From a virus, in the IMG/VR virus record IMGVR_UViG_3300013883_000004: a DNA stretch of 30,984 nt; one strand, given 5' to 3'. The first letter of the stretch is position 1, and each line of letters opens with the position of its first letter. Both the position numbers and the translations under genes were made by a program. Below, in pieces: positions 4,124 through 13,334 of the stretch. The notes beneath the pieces are model-generated. The model made no database searches and had not been told where the DNA came from. It saw only the letters and a list, made by a program, of their open reading frames with translations.

Positions 4124-4408
4124 ATGAAGAAAAGTAGAAAAGAAATTCTTATTGAAAATAGAGTAAAGAAGTTTGTCAAAAATTGCAGATGGTTAAACCA
4201 TAAAAATGCTAAACATCTTGTTTATTATTCTTGTGCTTGGGATAGTGAATATGCTCGGGCAGAACACAAGTGTCCACTTACTGGGGAGAAGGCTATGTAC
4301 TTTATACAGCATAAAAGAATGGGGAGAAAAACAGTAATTGAAGGAATAAGCCTAAAAGCAATAAAAATGATTGAAAAAGAGATAGGTTGCTCATTAAAAG
4401 AAGTCTAA
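4124..4408 (+). CDS. Hypothetical protein (94 aa)
   Basis: ORF with the purine-rich AAAGGGGA directly before its ATG. It is the last CDS before the non-coding block. Confidence 0.6.
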   Translation: MKKSRKEILIENRVKKFVKNCRWLNHKNAKHLVYYSCAWDSEYARAEHKCPLTGEKAMYFIQHKRMGRKTVIEGISLKAIKMIEKEIGCSLKEV

Positions 4409-4418
4409 ATAATTATTA

Positions 4419-4630
4419 GTGCGGGGGGTCAACTTACAATACTCGCAAAGTATTGTGAAAGTGGCTTGCTTCTGATAGCGAAGTAGTAGAGATACGAAAG
4501 AGCGATGCAGAGTGCCAATCGGACTAGTGCGACATTTACAAGTGAGAAGTTATCGCTTTGAATTGTAATCTGAGGAGTGCACATTACTCAGCTTACTAGG
4601 ATAGGGTTTGCCACATATCACCCCCGTGCC
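4419..4630 (+). ncRNA. Unclassified structured RNA of about 210 nt (second Y RNA-like candidate or a novel RNA)
   Basis: There is no ORF here and the GC is about 47% by hand count of 4421-4520. A 9-bp closing helix pairs GUGCGGGGG (4419-4427) with CCCCCGUGC (4621-4629). Internal helices are 4436-4443/4449-4456, 4461-4465/4610-4614, 4467-4472/4480-4485, 4501-4506/4552-4557 and 4570-4574/4587-4591. Confidence 0.5.
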
Positions 4631-4691
4631 AGTAGTTATTTAATTGGTTAATTTAATAAGAAAAAGAATTAGTTCTTTAACAATATAAGTT

Positions 4692-4908
4692 CGCCACTTG
4701 TTCAGTAGGGTTAAATTACGGATACTTCAATGGCAATGAAAACTACCGTAGTTATTTATCCCTACCTCAGGGGGTGCGATATAACAGTTACTTCTCCTAT
4801 AAAGAAGAGGTCGCTGGTTCGAGTCCAGCCTTACCATATGGTAAGTAGCTCAGTTGGATAGAGCGCTATATACTGTTATTAATTATCGCCCCTACTGAAT
4901 GGGTGGTG
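4692..4908 (+). ncRNA. YrlA-type Y RNA-like transcript with an embedded tRNA-like domain
   Basis: The terminal helix pairs TTCAGTAGGG (4701-4710) with CCCTACTGAA (4890-4899) and CGCCAC (4692-4697) with GTGGTG (4903-4908) across a 3x3 internal loop. Inner helices are 4776-4780/4885-4889 and 4781-4788/4872-4879. These enclose a permuted tRNA cloverleaf. The RNA lies directly upstream of a Ro60 orthologue on the same strand. Confidence 0.7.
4791..4865 (+). ncRNA. Circularly permuted tRNA-like module
   Basis: The elements read, in order: CTTCT-CCTATAA-AGAAG hairpin (4791-4807); AGGTC (4808-4812); T-arm GCTGG-TTCGAGT-CCAGC (4813-4829); acceptor strands CTTACCA (4830-4836) and TGGTAAG (4839-4845) joined into a hairpin; TA (4846-4847); D-arm GCTC-AGTTGGATA-GAGC (4848-4864); G4865. 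Confidence 0.8.
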
Positions 4909-4911
4909 ATA

Positions 4912-4971
4912 GGTACAGATACTTCAAATTGCATTTTGAGCAAGTCTGTGATGCTCGGACATCTCTGTACC
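4912..4971 (+). other. Stem-loop element 3' of the Y RNA-like transcript (3' module or processing/termination hairpin)
   Basis: GGTACAGA (4912-4919) pairs with TCTGTACC (4964-4971). An inner hairpin pairs GAGCA (4938-4942) with TGCTC (4951-4955). A T-rich tract, CCCCTTTAATTTTT, lies about 10 nt downstream. Confidence 0.45.
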
Positions 4972-5005
4972 TGCCTTGCCCCTTTAATTTTTAATTATTA
5001 AATCT

Positions 5006-6427
5006 ATGTCAAGATTTAACACAAAAGTAGATAACACCACTACTAATTTGGCTGGTGGTAAAGCTTTTAAGATGAATGCAGAGCAAGAGTTGCTTCACGC
5101 CGTTCTTACTACATTCCTTGAAGATAAATACTACGAGTCAGGAGATGAAAGAATAGAAAGAATTAAAACCCTTGTTTCGCAGGTTAAGCCAGAATATGTG
5201 GCTAAACTTGCGTATGTTGCTAGAAATGAGTTTAATATGAGAAGTGTTCCTATTGTTCTTTTAGGAGAGTTATCTAAGGTTCATAAAGGGGACTCTTTGG
5301 TTAAAAATGCTATTGAAAAAACTGTGGCAAGGGTTGATGATTTAACGGAATTGGTTGCATATCTAGATTGTAAACTTCCTAAGCAAGTCAAAAGAGGTAT
5401 AAGGCATTCACTTTACAAGTTTTCTCCTTATCAGTTAGCGAAATACAGAGGAGAAGGCAAAGATGTTAAATTGGTAGATGTCTTTAATCTTGTACATCCT
5501 AATCCTAAGTTTGCAACGGATAAACAGAAAGAAGCTTGGGCTAAATTAATAAAAGGAGAGCTTAAAACTACTGGACAGACTTGGGAGTCAGTGATATCTG
5601 CTTCTAAGGATAAAAAAGCTGACTGGGAGATGCTGGTCAGAGAAAACAAACTTGGGTATATGGCACTTCTAAGGAACTTGAATAACCTTATAAAAGAAGG
5701 TGTATCAGATGAGGTACTGCAATTGGCTATAAATAAGCTTACTAATAGAGAACAAGTAAAAAAATCTAAACAATTGCCATTCAGGTTTGTTACTGCATAT
5801 GAAAATGTGCAAGGCAATAGAAAACTTACAGATGCAATATCAGTAGCAATGGACTATGCGGTAGATAATACGCCAGAACTTGCTGGTAAAACGCTTATAG
5901 CAATAGACTGCTCTGGTTCGATGGAAGGAGATGCAATTCAAAAAGCTTCTATCTTTGGGGCAACATTGGCGAAAGCCAATTCTAATTCAGATGTGATTTT
6001 GTACGATACTTCTGTGAAACAGTTAACTATTTCAACAAGAACGCCAGTAATTGATGTTGCACAATATGTAGAAAAAGAAGCAATGGGGGGAGGAACTAAT
6101 ACTTCTTTGGTCTTTGAGTATGCATATCAAAGTGGAAAGTTATATGACAGAATAATAATTATTTCTGATAACGAATCTTGGCAAGATAGTTACAGTGGAT
6201 GGTATACCACACAAAATGGTACACAAGAGGCATACAACAAGTATAAGAACCTTACAAAAACAGACCCATTCGTATATGCAATAGATATTCAAGGTTATGG
6301 TACGAAAGATATTTCTAATCCTAAGGTTATACATCTTGCTGGTTGGTCATCAAGGCTATTAGATTTTATCGGATTATATGAAAAAGGTGGTTCTATTGTG
6401 GAGTATATAAACTCTGTGGAATTGTAA
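5006..6427 (+). CDS. rsr: Ro60 orthologue (Rsr): TROVE domain plus C-terminal vWA domain
   Basis: The N-terminus TNLAGGKAFKMNAEQELLHAVLTTFLEDKYYESGDERIERIK matches the TROVE signature (T-N-x-AGG-x-AF ... FYE). A MIDAS-type DxSxS motif, IAIDCSGSM, sits in the C-terminal half. At 473 aa the length suits a bacterial Rsr. Confidence 0.9.
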   Translation: MSRFNTKVDNTTTNLAGGKAFKMNAEQELLHAVLTTFLEDKYYESGDERIERIKTLVSQVKPEYVAKLAYVARNEFNMRSVPIVLLGELSKVHKGDSLVKNAIEKTVARVDDLTELVAYLDCKLPKQVKRGIRHSLYKFSPYQLAKYRGEGKDVKLVDVFNLVHPNPKFATDKQKEAWAKLIKGELKTTGQTWESVISASKDKKADWEMLVRENKLGYMALLRNLNNLIKEGVSDEVLQLAINKLTNREQVKKSKQLPFRFVTAYENVQGNRKLTDAISVAMDYAVDNTPELAGKTLIAIDCSGSMEGDAIQKASIFGATLAKANSNSDVILYDTSVKQLTISTRTPVIDVAQYVEKEAMGGGTNTSLVFEYAYQSGKLYDRIIIISDNESWQDSYSGWYTTQNGTQEAYNKYKNLTKTDPFVYAIDIQGYGTKDISNPKVIHLAGWSSRLLDFIGLYEKGGSIVEYINSVEL

Positions 6428-6459
6428 TTATATTTAGTTAATTTATTAAATAAATATAA

Positions 6460-6687
6460 ATGTGGAGAAATGATAAAGACTTCTATTATTTAGAGGAAAA
6501 AAGTTCAGTTAGTCTGTTAAAAGCCATTTTGGTAAAAATATTTGGAATTAGAATAATGGCTTATGATATTGAAAATAATATTGTAACCGTAGTTGAGATG
6601 TATCGGTATGGAGGAGAGAGTTATATAACGAAAGAATATTCAATTAAATTAGATAAAAGAAAGAATAATGAAGAAACTACGACTTAA
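6460..6687 (+). CDS. Hypothetical protein (75 aa)
   Basis: ORF preceded by AATTTATTAAA at 6440-6450. Confidence 0.5.
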   Translation: MWRNDKDFYYLEEKSSVSLLKAILVKIFGIRIMAYDIENNIVTVVEMYRYGGESYITKEYSIKLDKRKNNEETTT

Positions 6688-11320: not shown

Positions 11321-11761
11321 ATGGAAAACACGAAAGAAAACACAGGAAAAATTGTTGGAGGTGCAAGTGGAAAAGGTTTTGATGTTAATGGGCAACCTAG
11401 TCCAGAAGCAAAGAAGGCAGGTTGGGAAAGAAGAAGGGAGGCACAGAAAATCCTTGATGAGTTTATGCGACAGGCTGATATGAGCTACAAAGAAATCAAG
11501 GACTTGTTAAACGATATTAAGAAGAATCCTCAAAATCATACATTAAGGGAAGTAAAAATAGCTAATTATTTAATGAGCGGGAAGTATACGGTAGACTGGT
11601 TAAACAGGCATATTAGTAACGCACCGCAGGAGGTAGATATTACTTCTAAGGGAAAGGCAATTAAGAAATATACATTTGAAATAGTAAATGCAAAAGACAG
11701 TAATGAACAATCAGAAGCGGGAAGAAGAGAAGATAATAAAAGCGACACACCTACTGACTGA
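11321..11761 (+). CDS. terS: Terminase small subunit (putative)
   Basis: The gene sits immediately upstream of TerL and overlaps it. The Gly/Lys-rich N-terminus GGASGKGFDVNGQPSPEAKKAGWERRREA is typical of small terminase subunits. Confidence 0.55.
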   Translation: MENTKENTGKIVGGASGKGFDVNGQPSPEAKKAGWERRREAQKILDEFMRQADMSYKEIKDLLNDIKKNPQNHTLREVKIANYLMSGKYTVDWLNRHISNAPQEVDITSKGKAIKKYTFEIVNAKDSNEQSEAGRREDNKSDTPTD

Positions 11762-13334
11762 TACGATAGAAGCATTTGAAAATGGCAAGAGGGTTGTTGA
11801 ACATTCAGGGGGCAGTAGGTGCTTTGATGGTGAGCAGAAAGTTATAACAGATGGTGGAAGCAAGAAAATATCAGACATAAAAGCTGGTGATTTTGTTCTT
11901 TCAGGACACAACAAAGAATACAAGATGGTTAAGAATGTTTTTAAGATGAAGAATGAAAAACCTTGTTATGAGATAGTTCTAAAAAATGGTGAAAAGATTA
12001 GAGCAACACAAGACCACAAGGTTTGGTACAGGGGCGGTTGGCATTCTCTAAAATATGTTGTAAAATGTTGGAATAAAAGGGAATCGTATACAACACTACT
12101 AGATGATATTGCAGAGGTTAGAGAAATATCACTCGATACTGTTTATGATATTGAGGTTGAAGATAATCACAGTTATTATTTAGATTGCGAAAAGCCCATT
12201 CTTGTTCACAATTCTGGAAAAACTTATTCTATCTTTCAATTTCTTCTAGGAAGAGCAATTCAAGGTAAAGGTGAAACTTTCACAATAGTCAGGGACAAGT
12301 TGACTTGGATAAAAAGCACACTATTGGTAGACTTCAAGAACATAACTGATATGATGGAGTTAGAAGTTACACCAGAAATAAACTATAACAGAGCAGAACA
12401 GGTTTATATTGTTAATGGTAGTGAGTTTGCATTCTTCGGACTAGATTATGCCGAGAAGTTACACGGAAGAAAACAAGATTGGTCTTGGATAAATGAAGCA
12501 TTAGAAGTAGAAAGAAATCATTTTGACCAGTTAGAGATGAGAACAACAAAGGGAATGTTAATAGACTTTAATCCGTATAATGATATAGGTTGGGTATACG
12601 ATATTCAGAAGCGACCAGATGTGCAAGTAATTAAGTCTACAATGTTAGACAATCCTTTTTTAGAAGAAGCTATCAGAAAGAAGATATTAAGTTATGAACC
12701 TACACCAGAGAATATTAAAAACGGTACTGCTGACAATTATATGTGGCAGGTTTATGGGTTAGGAGAAAAGGCAAGGTTACAAGGTTTGGTATTTAATAAC
12801 TGGGATATTGTAGAGGATATTCCTGATGGTGCAAAGTTCTTAGGTTATGGTTTAGACTTTGGATTTACAAATGACCCTACCGCATTGGTAGGACTGTGGG
12901 AATATGATAAAGAATTATATGTTGACAATCCTATTTACAAAACCAGACTGCTTAATCAAGATATAATCAATGAGTTAAAAAGGCTAGGTGTTAGCAGTGC
13001 TGATTTAATTGTTGCGGATAGTGCAGAGCCTAAGAGTATAGAAGAAATAGCATTGGCAGGATTTAACATACAAGGGGCATACAAGGGACAGGATAGTGTG
13101 AGATATGGAATAGATTTATTAAAGAATTTCAAAATACACTTAACCAGAAGAAGTATTGAAATGGAGAATGAACTAAGAAAATATAAATACAAAGAGGACA
13201 GAAGCGGAAACATTCTCAACGAACCTATTGACCAGTTTAACCATACAATAGATGCACTGCGGTATATTGCCATAGAAAGATTAGGGAATAGGCAAGAGGT
13301 GCAGATATTTAATAGAGAACTGCTAGGCTTGTAA
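11688..13334 (+). CDS. terL: Terminase large subunit precursor, interrupted by a mini-intein
   Basis: The exteins join as ...EHSGGSR|SGKTYSIF..., which restores the Walker A motif G-x4-GKT. The C-terminal nuclease region contains DQFNHTIDALRY. M6 at 11703 is an alternative start. Confidence 0.85.
   Translation: MQKTVMNNQKREEEKIIKATHLLTDTIEAFENGKRVVEHSGGSRCFDGEQKVITDGGSKKISDIKAGDFVLSGHNKEYKMVKNVFKMKNEKPCYEIVLKNGEKIRATQDHKVWYRGGWHSLKYVVKCWNKRESYTTLLDDIAEVREISLDTVYDIEVEDNHSYYLDCEKPILVHNSGKTYSIFQFLLGRAIQGKGETFTIVRDKLTWIKSTLLVDFKNITDMMELEVTPEINYNRAEQVYIVNGSEFAFFGLDYAEKLHGRKQDWSWINEALEVERNHFDQLEMRTTKGMLIDFNPYNDIGWVYDIQKRPDVQVIKSTMLDNPFLEEAIRKKILSYEPTPENIKNGTADNYMWQVYGLGEKARLQGLVFNNWDIVEDIPDGAKFLGYGLDFGFTNDPTALVGLWEYDKELYVDNPIYKTRLLNQDIINELKRLGVSSADLIVADSAEPKSIEEIALAGFNIQGAYKGQDSVRYGIDLLKNFKIHLTRRSIEMENELRKYKYKEDRSGNILNEPIDQFNHTIDALRYIAIERLGNRQEVQIFNRELLGL
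11820..12212 (+). mobile_element. Class-1 mini-intein (131 aa) in the TerL P-loop
   Basis: It begins with Cys in CFDGEQKV (block A) and has TQDH (block B, TxxH). VYDIEVEDNHSYY...ILVHN supplies blocks F and G and ends in HN, followed by the +1 Ser of SGKT. No homing-endonuclease domain fits in 131 aa. Confidence 0.85.

Follow-up and report, generated by a model that had tools for sequence, protein, structure and literature searches.

The locus

The window analysed here is the whole 30,984-nucleotide stretch of IMG/VR record IMGVR_UViG_3300013883_000004, a tailed-phage genome. Three tandem Y-RNA modules, A, B and C, are located on its plus strand just upstream of a gene for a Ro60 (Rsr) ortholog, and all four features lie within about 1.7 kb, a compact phage example of this arrangement (Table 1). 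The middle module is very probably a YrlA-type RNA. Module A is conserved in the relatives L162, L082 and L163 with five pairs changed on both sides, and module C in L162, L082, L001 and L163 with four such pairs. A scan for promoter and terminator consensus sequences on the plus strand of 4380-5050 gave nothing useful. Module B is probably co-transcribed with modules A and C and the Ro60 mRNA.

The Ro60 gene product matches the Pfam families TROVE (3e-24) and vWA_Ro60 (2.5e-10) and PHROG 850 (RNA-binding protein, 1.6e-49). Residues D301, S303 and S305 are invariant among 50 homologs, and we take them to be the DxSxS MIDAS motif. The assignment to Ro60 is based on the presence of both the TROVE and the vWA domain, its MIDAS part on these three residues. 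The closest solved structure is Ro60 from Thermus phage phiLo (PDB codes 9KOP and 9L5Y, E 2.3e-25).

Table 1. Features of the Y-RNA array and the adjoining Ro60 gene. Numbers such as 42-43 or G26 are tRNA positions.
Feature	Position	Strand	Remarks
Module A, Y-RNA-like hairpin, upstream	4703-4768	+	without tRNA-like domain (YrlB-like); fold z -2.87
Whole YrlA-type Y RNA (predicted)	4766-4897	+	module B of the three-module array; ends approximate
Terminal bulged stem, 5' strand	4770-4780	+	GGGG 4770-4773, bulge G4774/U4775, GCGAU 4776-4780 (DNA GCGAT); presumed Ro60-binding module
Stem 2, 5' strand	4781-4788	+	AUAACAGU; pairs with 4872-4879; DNA ATAACAGT
Junction motif, conserved	4788-4792	+	UUACU(U); UUAC 4788-4791 corresponds to the YUAY of Chen et al. 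2014 (PMC4201824)
Alternative 5-bp hairpin, this sequence	4791-4807	+	CTTCT-CCTATAA-AGAAG
Anticodon-arm-like hairpin ('V' stem-loop)	4793-4805	+	U4793-A4805, C4794-G4804, U4795-A4803; loop CCUAUAA 4796-4802
Positions 42-43 (A, G)	4806-4807	+	3' strand of anticodon-stem top; partners U4867, C4866
Variable loop, 5 nt	4808-4812	+	AGGUC (A44, G45, G46, U47, C48)
T arm	4813-4829	+	GCUGG, loop UUCGAGU, CCAGC; DNA GCTGG-TTCGAGT-CCAGC
Capped acceptor	4830-4845	+	CUUACC(A) / (U)GGUAAG, closed by AUAU or UA
U8-A9 equivalents (TA)	4846-4847	+	family: U8:A14 in 103/104, A9 in 99/104
D arm	4848-4864	+	GCUC, loop AGUUGGAUA, GAGC; DNA GCTC-AGTTGGATA-GAGC; 100% paired family-wide
G26, C27, U28	4865-4867	+	C27 and U28 form 5' strand of anticodon-stem top
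Stem 2, 3' strand	4872-4879	+	ACUGUUAU, then unpaired UAAUU 4880-4884; DNA ACTGTTAT
Terminal stem, 3' strand	4885-4893	+	AUCGC CCCU (DNA ATCGC 4885-4889)
Module C, Y-RNA-like hairpin, downstream	4898-4984	+	without tRNA-like domain; fold z -2.87
Ro60 (Rsr) ortholog, 473 aa	5006-6427	+	presumed protein partner; tailed-phage genome

Identification of the RNA

The region 4766-4897 is assigned with high confidence to a predicted YrlA-type Y RNA that presumably acts as non-coding partner to the Ro60 protein. It is a further member of a described family and no new kind of element; the first Y RNAs of this sort, with a tRNA-like domain, became known in 2014. The first-pass annotation of this DNA had read the region as belonging to a YrlA-class Y RNA, with a tRNA-mimicking domain that runs from the T arm through the capped acceptor to the D arm and leaves no 3' end free. 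This core reading holds; all the tRNA elements that it listed are present, and every string was verified. It receives further support from the Ro60/TROVE gene, which that annotation had not mentioned. From the approximate end of the RNA at 4897 it is 109 nt downstream to the start of the Ro60 reading frame on the same strand, well inside the distance of about 4 kb within which YrlA RNAs are linked to Ro60.

The Rfam YrlA model (RF02553), which had been suggested as a check, matches 4769-4897 from end to end (model positions 1-114 of 114, E 3.8e-11). The score of 53.5 bits is below the gathering score of 69, which reflects curation and is not itself a feature of the biology. Consistent with this, Rfam at gathering thresholds returns no match in the whole window, and the YrlA match appears only at E-value thresholds. 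All subfamily members tested also score below the YrlA threshold, those of cultured bacteria at 41-45 and others at up to 49 bits. The same is true of CcrColossus (42 bits), which PMC12135203, with reference to Chen et al. 2014, lists as a phage that has Y RNA-like RNAs. Model R1, the covariance model built here, matches 4765-4900 with 104.9 bits.

The region does not behave as an ordinary tRNA gene. ARAGORN finds no tRNA gene in the window and none in the linear piece 4760-4900, while the permuted sequence 4839-4865 + 4791-4836 is reported as a tRNA, exactly as the first-pass annotation had expected. The Rfam tRNA model scores 25.0 bits, below its gathering score of 29, with the D arm deleted.

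The unconstrained minimum free energy (MFE) fold of 4766-4897 reproduces both clamp stems, the T arm, the capped acceptor, the D arm and the hairpin. Its energy is -45.7 kcal/mol, compared with -31.7 +/- 3.2 for shuffled sequences (z = -4.33; none of 200 shuffles as good). The minus strand of the region folds equally well (z = -5.46), as is expected of any helical RNA gene. The RNA is assigned to the plus strand because the T-loop and D-loop motifs, the G-U pairs of the family and the strand of Ro60 all indicate it, and the minus-strand reading was rejected.

Family of related RNAs

A blastn search with 4400-6500 as query found nothing in the phage collection, and relatives were reached through the Ro60 protein. 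Model R1 has 105 matches at E<=1e-13 in 84 Ro60 loci, all but one of them (104/105) on the Ro60 strand. Bacterial genomes contribute 88 more, including cultured Flavobacterium, Niastella, Chitinophaga, Pedobacter, Clostridium intestinale and a Bacillus species. In total about 190 related RNAs adjoin the Ro60 genes of phages, Bacteroidota and Bacillota. The helices of these homologous RNAs covary rather than break, which was the outcome that the permuted-cloverleaf reading required.

Across 104 distinct members, 93.8% of the positions in the whole structure are paired, compared with 65.6% after shuffling and 36-47% with slid partners, and two-sided changes occur in 26 of its 27 pairs. These covariation statements refer to the structure inward of the terminal Ro-binding stem, the 3' tail of which is too poorly aligned. 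In the closest relatives, which have an identical scaffold, compensatory changes are found in the T stem, the acceptor stem and the hairpin (97.4% paired, 15 pairs changed on both sides). Other close relatives, L082 and L163-L168, keep the scaffold without the tRNA-like domain. The domain is therefore dispensable in some phages.

T arm, acceptor and D arm

The three arms of the tRNA-like domain are retained throughout the family. The T arm is paired in 100% of cases, with two-sided changes in four of its five pairs, and T54:A58 occurs in all 104 members. The sequence AGGUC is the commonest variable loop of the family, and G46 is present in 97/104. In the D loop, G18 is found in 97/104 and the G19:C56 pair is conserved. 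The Levitt pair 15:48, a tertiary contact of YrlA, is formed here by G15 (4853) and C48 (4812); in the family it is G:C in 63 members and A:U in 30. The order of elements is that of YrlA, with the T arm followed by a closed acceptor stem-loop and then the D arm, and both the T and D loops are tRNA-like.

The outer three pairs of the acceptor are 97.7% paired in the family, and each is changed on both sides. In the close relatives L162, L253 and L257 the acceptor sequence is wholly different and the pairing is kept. The first-pass annotation had described the acceptor as CTTACCA joined through TA to its complement TGGTAAG. This string is present; however, seven pairs closed by a two-nucleotide loop are sterically unlikely, and the fold gives six pairs with an AUAU loop.

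Y-RNA stems and junction

The two helices regarded earlier as clamps on the tRNA-like module are indeed located where they had been placed, but they are ordinary Y-RNA stems, one of them presumably the Ro60-binding stem. The terminal segment 4770-4780 pairs with 4885-4893 in the MFE fold, and its location is that of the Ro-binding stem in the Rfam YrlA model. The sequence GUGCGAU in this stem matches the published Ro-binding motif GNCGAA(N)G only in part, retaining the CGA core; for the subfamily the consensus reads GCAKUGYAG. Stem 2 shows two-sided changes in all seven pairs, and 93.4% of its cells are paired in the 104 distinct family members.

The junction sequence UUACUU is present in 76/104 distinct members, and the UUAC within it agrees with the YUAY of YrlA. 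According to Chen et al. 2014 (PMC4201824), who describe more than 250 YrlA-like RNAs, a fourth stem-loop 'V' begins at this conserved YUAY, which is said to open the V loop. In the 6CU1 structure a kink is attributed to the UA (bioRxiv 10.1101/312249).

Anticodon-arm-like hairpin

The hairpin between the junction and the variable loop had been reported as an extra feature of this RNA. It is not novel, since it corresponds to the 'V' stem-loop of Chen et al. 2014 (PMC4201824). The geometry of a three-pair stem with a seven-nucleotide loop is found in 68 of the 104 distinct members examined. Its inner pairs covary: 31':39 is paired in 96.9% (39.1% shuffled) and 30':40 in 92.6% (63.6% shuffled). 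Among the 68, the loop has C32 in 52, U33 in 64, A37 in 61 and A38 in 62. The first-pass annotation had pointed to a C at the U33 position of the present sequence, and this is confirmed; the nearest relative, L256, has U there. The anticodon-like positions 34-36 drift, with 25 different triplets in the 68 sequences, and near-identical relatives carry UAU, GAU, GCA and UUG.

The length of the stem and the position of the break in the cloverleaf are matters of interpretation rather than observation. The earlier proposal was a five-pair hairpin with the break between 26 and 27. In the family, the outer two pairs of such a hairpin are paired in 69% and 63%, which is the shuffled expectation, and positions 42-43 have no covariation or pairing signal across the family with the invariant UU (ACUU) of the hairpin 5' strand. 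As a family-level structure the independent five-pair hairpin was rejected. For this particular sequence it is thermodynamically possible, with a nearest-neighbour energy of -39.3 kcal/mol, compared with -32.1 for the composite arm described below.

The same positions 42-43 (A4806-G4807) covary family-wide with 27-28 (C4866-U4867) of the return strand. Pair 27:43 is formed in 92.9% (52.3% shuffled) with mutual information of 0.94 bit, and pair 28:42 in 92.0% (43.1% shuffled) with 1.30 bit; in neither case does any of 10000 shuffles reach the observed value. The combination at 26:44 is G:A, the commonest in the family (30/104). The break is better placed at 28/29 because these two pairs covary and the outer pairs of the hairpin have no signal. 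Most likely, a three-pair stem with a seven-nucleotide loop is stacked under a two-pair stem top, although the stacking itself is a feature that we infer. A third stem-top pair from the return strand, 29:41, was also considered and rejected as not general (46% paired); in the window A4868 and A4805 cannot pair. The alternative pairing of TATA (4798-4801) with TATA (4867-4870) offered by the first-pass annotation did not survive, as only 36-52% of the family sequences can form it.

There is also a bolder proposal, which we consider rather unlikely. The V stem-loop of the subfamily, published as variable-arm-like, would represent the lower half of an entire anticodon-arm mimic, to which 27:43 and 28:42 add the rest, with a five-pair stem, a seven-nucleotide loop and U33/A37/A38, and the Ro60 particle would present the likeness of a whole tRNA with a split at 28/29. 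If this were true, the proposed descent of YrlA from a tRNA dimer would have direct support from sequence. If, in addition, the loop were read by a factor that recognises anticodon loops (the t6A machinery, an anticodon nuclease or the YrlA effector), the proposal would name the kind of partner that YrlA recruits. It would also explain the gain and loss of the module in phages.

Comparison with known systems

Among the closest described systems, YrlA (RF02553) is known from Salmonella Typhimurium and from the set of Chen et al. 2014. YrlA and the present RNA both adjoin Ro60 on the same strand and have a terminal stem, which in YrlA serves for Ro60 binding and here presumably does so by analogy. 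In both, the YUAY junction is followed by the variable loop, the T arm, the capped acceptor, the D arm and finally a return strand, whose partners are the bases preceding the variable loop on its 5' side. Covariation of the Levitt pair is also common to both, and a fourth 'V' stem-loop stands upstream of the T arm in many members. The present RNA differs from YrlA in its score (53.5 against the gathering 69 bits) and in having GUGCGAU as its 5' motif instead of GNCGAA. The S. Typhimurium YrlA domain adopts the L-shaped fold of tRNA (bioRxiv 10.1101/312249; PDB code 6CU1). It has no hairpin at the V site and 'lacks the anticodon loop', whereas the RNA described here has a three-pair hairpin with a seven-nucleotide loop and anticodon-loop-like conservation. 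This hairpin is located 5' of positions 42-43, inside the anticodon stem and not at the position of a variable arm.

According to PMC4201824, YrlA RNAs are encoded on the Ro60 strand no more than 4 kb from that gene, TruB and DusA modify them, and M. smegmatis YrlA undergoes RNase P cleavage and CCA addition. The RNA studied here shares with the YrlAs of M. smegmatis and mycobacteriophages a seven-pair acceptor, the length that permits these two reactions in M. smegmatis. Mycobacteriophages also provide examples of phage-encoded YrlA beside phage Ro60 genes. The Ro60 proteins, however, are very distant from the mycobacterial ones, with about 24% identity over part of the protein. Recruitment of tRNA enzymes, suggested as an idea in the first-pass annotation, matches the published biochemistry of these other YrlAs and may by analogy apply here.

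Thermus phage phiLo likewise has several Y-like RNAs, among them Yrl1 and Yrl2, just upstream of its Ro60 gene (9KOP, 9L5Y; PMC12135203). In the same paper a phage Ro60 is reported to bind phage Y-like RNAs and host PNPase, and phiLo may serve as a model for a phage Ro60 and Y RNA engaging host PNPase. The phiLo Yrls have a stem-bulge-stem form with a CGAA motif, the part of PMC12135203 available mentions no tRNA-like domain in them, and they resemble modules A and C, not module B. Deinococcus radiodurans Yrn1, as presented by Chen et al., is a Ro60-bound Y RNA that is partly tRNA-like, with a potential anticodon arm of five pairs. It differs in having the T-like and D-like elements in opposite order, a six-nucleotide 'anticodon loop' and an incomplete D arm.

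Alternative explanations

The tRNA-like module and its anticodon-like loop might act as a decoy or sponge, absorbing host tRNA-targeting nucleases or other tRNA-binding defence proteins, with Ro60 as carrier. The element would then be an anti-defence accessory rather than an RNA-decay tether. It is phage-borne, it retains the C32/U33/A37/A38 signature while positions 34-36 drift, and in close phage relatives it is present or absent on an otherwise identical scaffold, as are many arms-race accessory genes. However, free-living Bacteroidota and Bacillota have the same architecture on their chromosomes, next to Ro60 genes of their own, so that it is not phage-specific; the variable 'anticodon' speaks against mimicry of one target tRNA, and no defence or anti-defence gene was identified adjoining the element. 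A decoy function is decidedly unlikely.

Circularly permuted tRNA genes, known for example from the red alga Cyanidioschyzon merolae, place the 3' half of the cloverleaf ahead of the 5' half, and their transcripts are processed to ordinary linear tRNAs with free CCA ends. The present RNA has the same order of halves, but its acceptor strands are capped by two to four nucleotides and the break is bridged by a long stem that presumably binds Ro60. The known permuted tRNA genes come from eukaryotes or archaea and depend on a splicing-type pathway, which counts against one here. RNase P could nevertheless be imagined to cut the acceptor cap, with trimming and CCA addition then giving a two-piece tRNA, functional or chargeable, whose parts the Y-RNA stems would hold together. 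This would agree with the tRNA call on the permuted sequence, with the complete anticodon-arm geometry and with the acceptor length at which M. smegmatis YrlA is cut and given CCA (PMC4201824). There is no encoded discriminator base or CCA, however, and the cap between the acceptor strands is only two to four nucleotides long. The 'anticodon' is not conserved even between near-identical relatives, this copy has C at position 33, the element is associated with Ro60 and not with tRNA gene sets, and the whole module is lost in close relatives. We consider such a gene highly improbable.

A decayed, functionless remnant of two neighbouring tRNA genes, the first reduced to its 3' half and the second to its 5' half, would have the element order of a tRNA dimer junction, a dimer is likewise the proposed evolutionary origin of YrlA, and L172 has a YrlA between two real tRNA genes; this has a negligible probability and is already contradicted by the compensatory changes in every helix over about 190 loci and the conserved tertiary nucleotides, which indicate ongoing selection on the fold, and by the constant linkage to Ro60 and its strand.

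Proposed structure and role

The preferred reading remains that of a YrlA-type partner of Ro60, in which Ro60 binding, modification by tRNA enzymes, an effector and a tethering function are taken over from the literature on other Y RNAs. The 5' and 3' ends would pair as a bulged stem (4770-4788 with 4872-4893) and dock on the Ro60 ring, by analogy with other Y RNAs. The apical 80 nucleotides would be tRNA-like, with the T arm, hairpin-closed acceptor, D arm, five-nucleotide variable loop and the nucleotides of the tRNA tertiary contacts all present. The look-alike of the anticodon arm would be formed from two pieces, C4866-G4807 and U4867-A4806 on top and the 4793-4805 hairpin stacked beneath. 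With this composite arm, the Ro60-binding stem would therefore leave the 'tRNA' through the 28/29 break in the 5' strand of the anticodon stem. The RNA may tether or gate Ro60, tethering being the role of other Y RNAs that link Ro60 to PNPase, and its tRNA-shaped handle may be presented to tRNA-binding factors of the host, such as modification enzymes, RNase P or some other effector.

The family analysis indicates that phages, Bacteroidota and Bacillota harbour a large subfamily that is missed by the Rfam YrlA threshold and in which the mimic extends to an anticodon-arm-like element. For annotation, such loci should be taken neither for tRNA genes nor for junk, and they are cleanly recovered with a model specific to the subfamily. 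The natural variants with and without the domain on one scaffold provide a ready comparison for the role of the tRNA-like domain in infection.

Identity of the RNA

Module B is the middle one of three tandem Y-RNA modules, with only a few bases between neighbours. It is a genuine tRNA mimic of the YrlA class, which is an established class. The Rfam search at gathering thresholds reported nothing. At E-value thresholds, the comparison with a YrlA model suggested by the first-pass annotation gave a match of RF02553 to 4769-4897 that is full-length (all 114 model positions, E = 3.8e-11), but its score of 53.5 bits lies below the gathering score of 69 bits. The alignment contains a 14-nt insertion at the site of the hairpin.

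In the literature, YrlA RNAs are defined as adjacent to Ro60 on the same strand, and at their centre is a tRNA mimic in which the T arm comes first, then the closed acceptor and then the D arm (Chen et al. 2014, PMC4201824). The structure of the Salmonella YrlA domain has been solved and has the tRNA L-shape (bioRxiv 10.1101/312249). In the window, an ortholog of Ro60 starts 109 nt 3' of module B on the same strand. It contains the Pfam domains TROVE (3e-24) and vWA_Ro60 (2.5e-10), belongs to PHROG 850 (RNA-binding protein) and has its nearest solved structure in the Ro60 of Thermus phage phiLo (9KOP/9L5Y). With the RF02553 match, the Ro60 gene downstream and the published order of the arms, the central interpretation of the first-pass annotation, a YrlA-class tRNA mimic, is therefore right.

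All tested members of the subfamily, and one published phage example, are under the RF02553 gathering score. Cultured Bacteroidota and Bacillota that match YrlA at E<=1e-5 (L228, L232, L226) score 41-45 bits, phage CcrColossus 42, and Xylella phage Usme 50 and 40. The comparison loci around Ro60 relatives listed under this subfamily are L214, L228, L232, L226, L220, L229, L240, L162, L169, L250 and L252. Module B falls short of the Rfam threshold, not of the biology. The gathering score misses the whole subfamily, and standard annotation therefore leaves such RNAs unannotated.

Structure and covariation

A circularly permuted cloverleaf with a capped acceptor had been described at 4776-4889, and its sequence elements are all located where they were placed: both clamps, the CTTCT/AGAAG hairpin with its 7-nt loop, AGGTC, the T arm, CTTACCA-TA-TGGTAAG, TA, the D arm and G4865. 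ARAGORN found 0 tRNA in the whole window or in the linear piece and, as predicted, called a tRNA on the permuted order 4839-4865 + 4791-4836. The unconstrained fold of 4766-4897 has both clamps and four hairpins, with an energy of -45.7 kcal/mol compared with -31.7 +/- 3.2 for shuffles (z = -4.33). The acceptor stem-loop forms in this fold; however, the proposed 7 bp with a 2-nt loop are replaced by 6 bp closed by AUAU, which is the more realistic closure.

Relatives of the Ro60 protein number in the thousands, and the comparison set comprised 160 loci on viral and metagenome contigs plus 80 in bacterial genomes. A simple T-loop ... D-arm pattern matched 97 of 162 sources, almost always next to Ro60. 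A covariance model was built from 29 sequences, with the contested positions kept unpaired on purpose, because the alignment should not be fitted to either hypothesis. It gave 105 matches at E<=1e-13, spread over 84 loci, and scored module B at 104.9 bits; 104 of the matches have the orientation of Ro60. The genome search with this model added 88 matches, including cultured Flavobacterium, Niastella, Chitinophaga, Pedobacter, Clostridium intestinale and a Bacillus species.

Overall pairing in the 104 distinct sequences is 93.8%, versus 65.6% for shuffled columns and 36-47% for slid partners; 26 of 27 pairs have double-sided changes, and pairing in the T and D stems is complete (100%). The tertiary signature of tRNA is kept across the family: the Levitt pair 15:48 is G:C in 63 sequences and A:U in 30, while U8:A14 is present in 103, T54:A58 in all 104 and G46 in 97. 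The closest clade (L256, L253, L162, L254, L257) has Ro60 proteins 78-84% identical to that of the window and outer stems that are nearly the same base for base. The first-pass annotation would have been contradicted by helix-breaking mutations in relatives. This clade has instead compensatory changes in the T stem, acceptor stem and hairpin (97.4% paired, 15 pairs double-changed), and the claim is therefore not refuted.

The pairing of A4806/G4807 (tRNA positions 42-43), the two bases directly 5' of the variable loop, has two options. Pairing with C4791/U4792, which uses the invariant UU of the UUACUU motif, gives the 5-bp hairpin of the first-pass annotation; the other partners are C4866/U4867 (positions 27-28), the two bases after G26. 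Family-wide, 27:43 is paired in 92.9% (52.3% shuffled) with six pair types and 28:42 in 92.0% (43.1% shuffled), each value being reached in 0/10000 shuffles. The outer hairpin pairs show no excess over chance across the family (69.0% vs 70.4% and 63.1% vs 62.6%), whereas the inner three covary, with 31':39 (primes denote the 5' strand of the hairpin) paired in 96.9% versus 39.1% shuffled and 30':40 in 92.6% versus 63.6%. This covariation argues for a family-level structure with a 2-bp stem top and, directly beneath it, a 3-bp hairpin with a 7-nt loop, the 3' strand being continuous. The 2-bp top is homologous to pairs in the Rfam model and in the 6CU1 structure. Nearest-neighbour energies for the window sequence only prefer the 5-bp hairpin (-39.3 vs -32.1 kcal/mol for the composite form), and therefore the choice for this RNA is inferred from its relatives. 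The alternative TATA/TATA stem, also proposed earlier, is pairable in only 36-52% and was rejected.

The geometry of 3 bp and a 7-nt loop is found in 68 of the 104 sequences, with all five pairs in 61 of the 68. In these loops C32 (52/68), U33 (64/68), A37 (61/68) and A38 (62/68) prevail, a pattern that reads as an anticodon-loop signature, and positions 34-36 are variable, with 25 different triplets. The window loop, CCUAUAA, has C33 at 4797; the nearest relative, L256 (962-1098), differs by one base, at 33, and has the canonical CUUAUAA. The closest relatives carry the Ile-like triplets UAU and GAU at 34-36. The family-wide loop preference is U36-A37-A38, which is the context of t6A-modified tRNAs.

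The hairpin as such is already known. It corresponds to the V stem-loop, which starts at a conserved YUAY (UUAC 4788-4791 in the window) and was compared with the variable arm of tRNA (Chen et al. 2014, PMC4201824). Its location 5' of the 42-43:27-28 pairs puts it inside the anticodon stem, not in the variable-arm position. Salmonella YrlA was said to lack 'the anticodon loop', and the origin model cited there derives YrlA from a tRNA dimer, whose first unit would have supplied the T arm and whose second unit the D arm (bioRxiv 10.1101/312249). Under this model the T arm should be preceded by an anticodon arm and then a variable loop of 5 nt, the arrangement seen in module B. In the YrlA texts compared, no remark was found on V being 5' of these pairs or on an anticodon-loop signature in its loop. 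The anticodon-stem placement and the loop signature are a possible refinement, not a discovery.

Two further loci were noted. In L172 (Clostridia MAG JAZSDN010000002.1), a YrlA-like RNA (892-1029, 122.6 bits) lies between genuine tRNA genes (816-887 and 1030-1101), which fits the proposed YrlA origin from tRNA arrays. In L251 (Bacteroides crAss-like phage PhiCrAssBcn24, OQ221559.1), a tRNA-like match (4174-4317, 46.6 bits with the Rfam tRNA model) downstream of the TROVE gene is unpermuted, and 82 nt are inserted into its anticodon region. An intron-containing tRNA is one possible reading, a separate kind of Ro60-linked tRNA-like RNA the other.

Genomic context

Coordinates of features in the window
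Feature	Position	Description
Leader	4688-4711	(G)TTCGCCACTTGTTCAGTAGGG; just upstream of module A, running into it
Module A	4703-4768	stem-bulge-stem hairpin, without tRNA-like domain
Module B	4766-4897	YrlA-type RNA with tRNA-like domain
Module C	4898-4984	stem-bulge-stem hairpin, without tRNA-like domain
Ro60 ortholog	5006-6427	ORF
Large terminase	11688-13334	ORF
Mini-intein	about 11814-12215	within large terminase

Modules A and C each have a G-rich 5' end, a C-rich CCC(C)U 3' end and the (A/U)UACUUC motif. Both have more stable folds than their shuffles (z = -2.87 each), are kept in related phages with compensatory changes and resemble YrlB, or Yrl1/Yrl2 of Thermus phage phiLo. The leader is conserved in L162, L082, L253 and L001 and may be a promoter or processing signal; a sigma-70 consensus scan there found nothing.

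In L082 (1318-1390) and L163-L168 (e.g. L163, ~1024-1093), whose Ro60 is 75-80% identical, the scaffold of module B is almost base for base that of the window, and a 17-nt loop replaces the entire tRNA-like domain. In L001 the domain is in the first module. Among close relatives, the domain has thus been acquired, lost or transferred to another module.

The portal, large terminase, tape-measure protein, DnaD-like loader and Erf-like protein genes identify the window as a tailed phage. The mini-intein is matched by Pfam Intein_splicing/Hint at terminase residues ~43-176, followed by Terminase_3 at 175-337; as read from the translation, it interrupts the Walker A site (...GGSR|C...HN|SGKT). The closest Ro60 in the species-representative genome set, that of L169 (CAZBAS010000011.1), shares 63% identity and comes from a 2.4-kb contig assigned to a Candidatus Saccharibacteria MAG, with a YrlA-like RNA (104.8 bits) upstream. 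It may point to the host, or the contig may be a phage fragment binned in error.

Proposed function

By analogy with publications on other members, from which all function is drawn, the best-supported account is that the terminal bulged stem would bind the phage Ro60, while the tRNA-shaped module would be an effector handle engaging host tRNA-binding proteins. The particle may then act in RNA surveillance or decay, like the complexes of Ro60, Y RNA and PNPase in Deinococcus, Salmonella and phage phiLo. A decoy for tRNA-targeting defences is given low weight because free-living bacteria carry the same RNA. Processing of a permuted tRNA into a working one is likewise improbable, since neither CCA nor the discriminator is encoded, the anticodon triplet is variable and relatives have lost the module. 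A dead remnant of a tRNA dimer, also of low weight, is contradicted by the covariation. The anticodon-arm-like element and the natural variants with and without the domain are useful leads on the YrlA effector.
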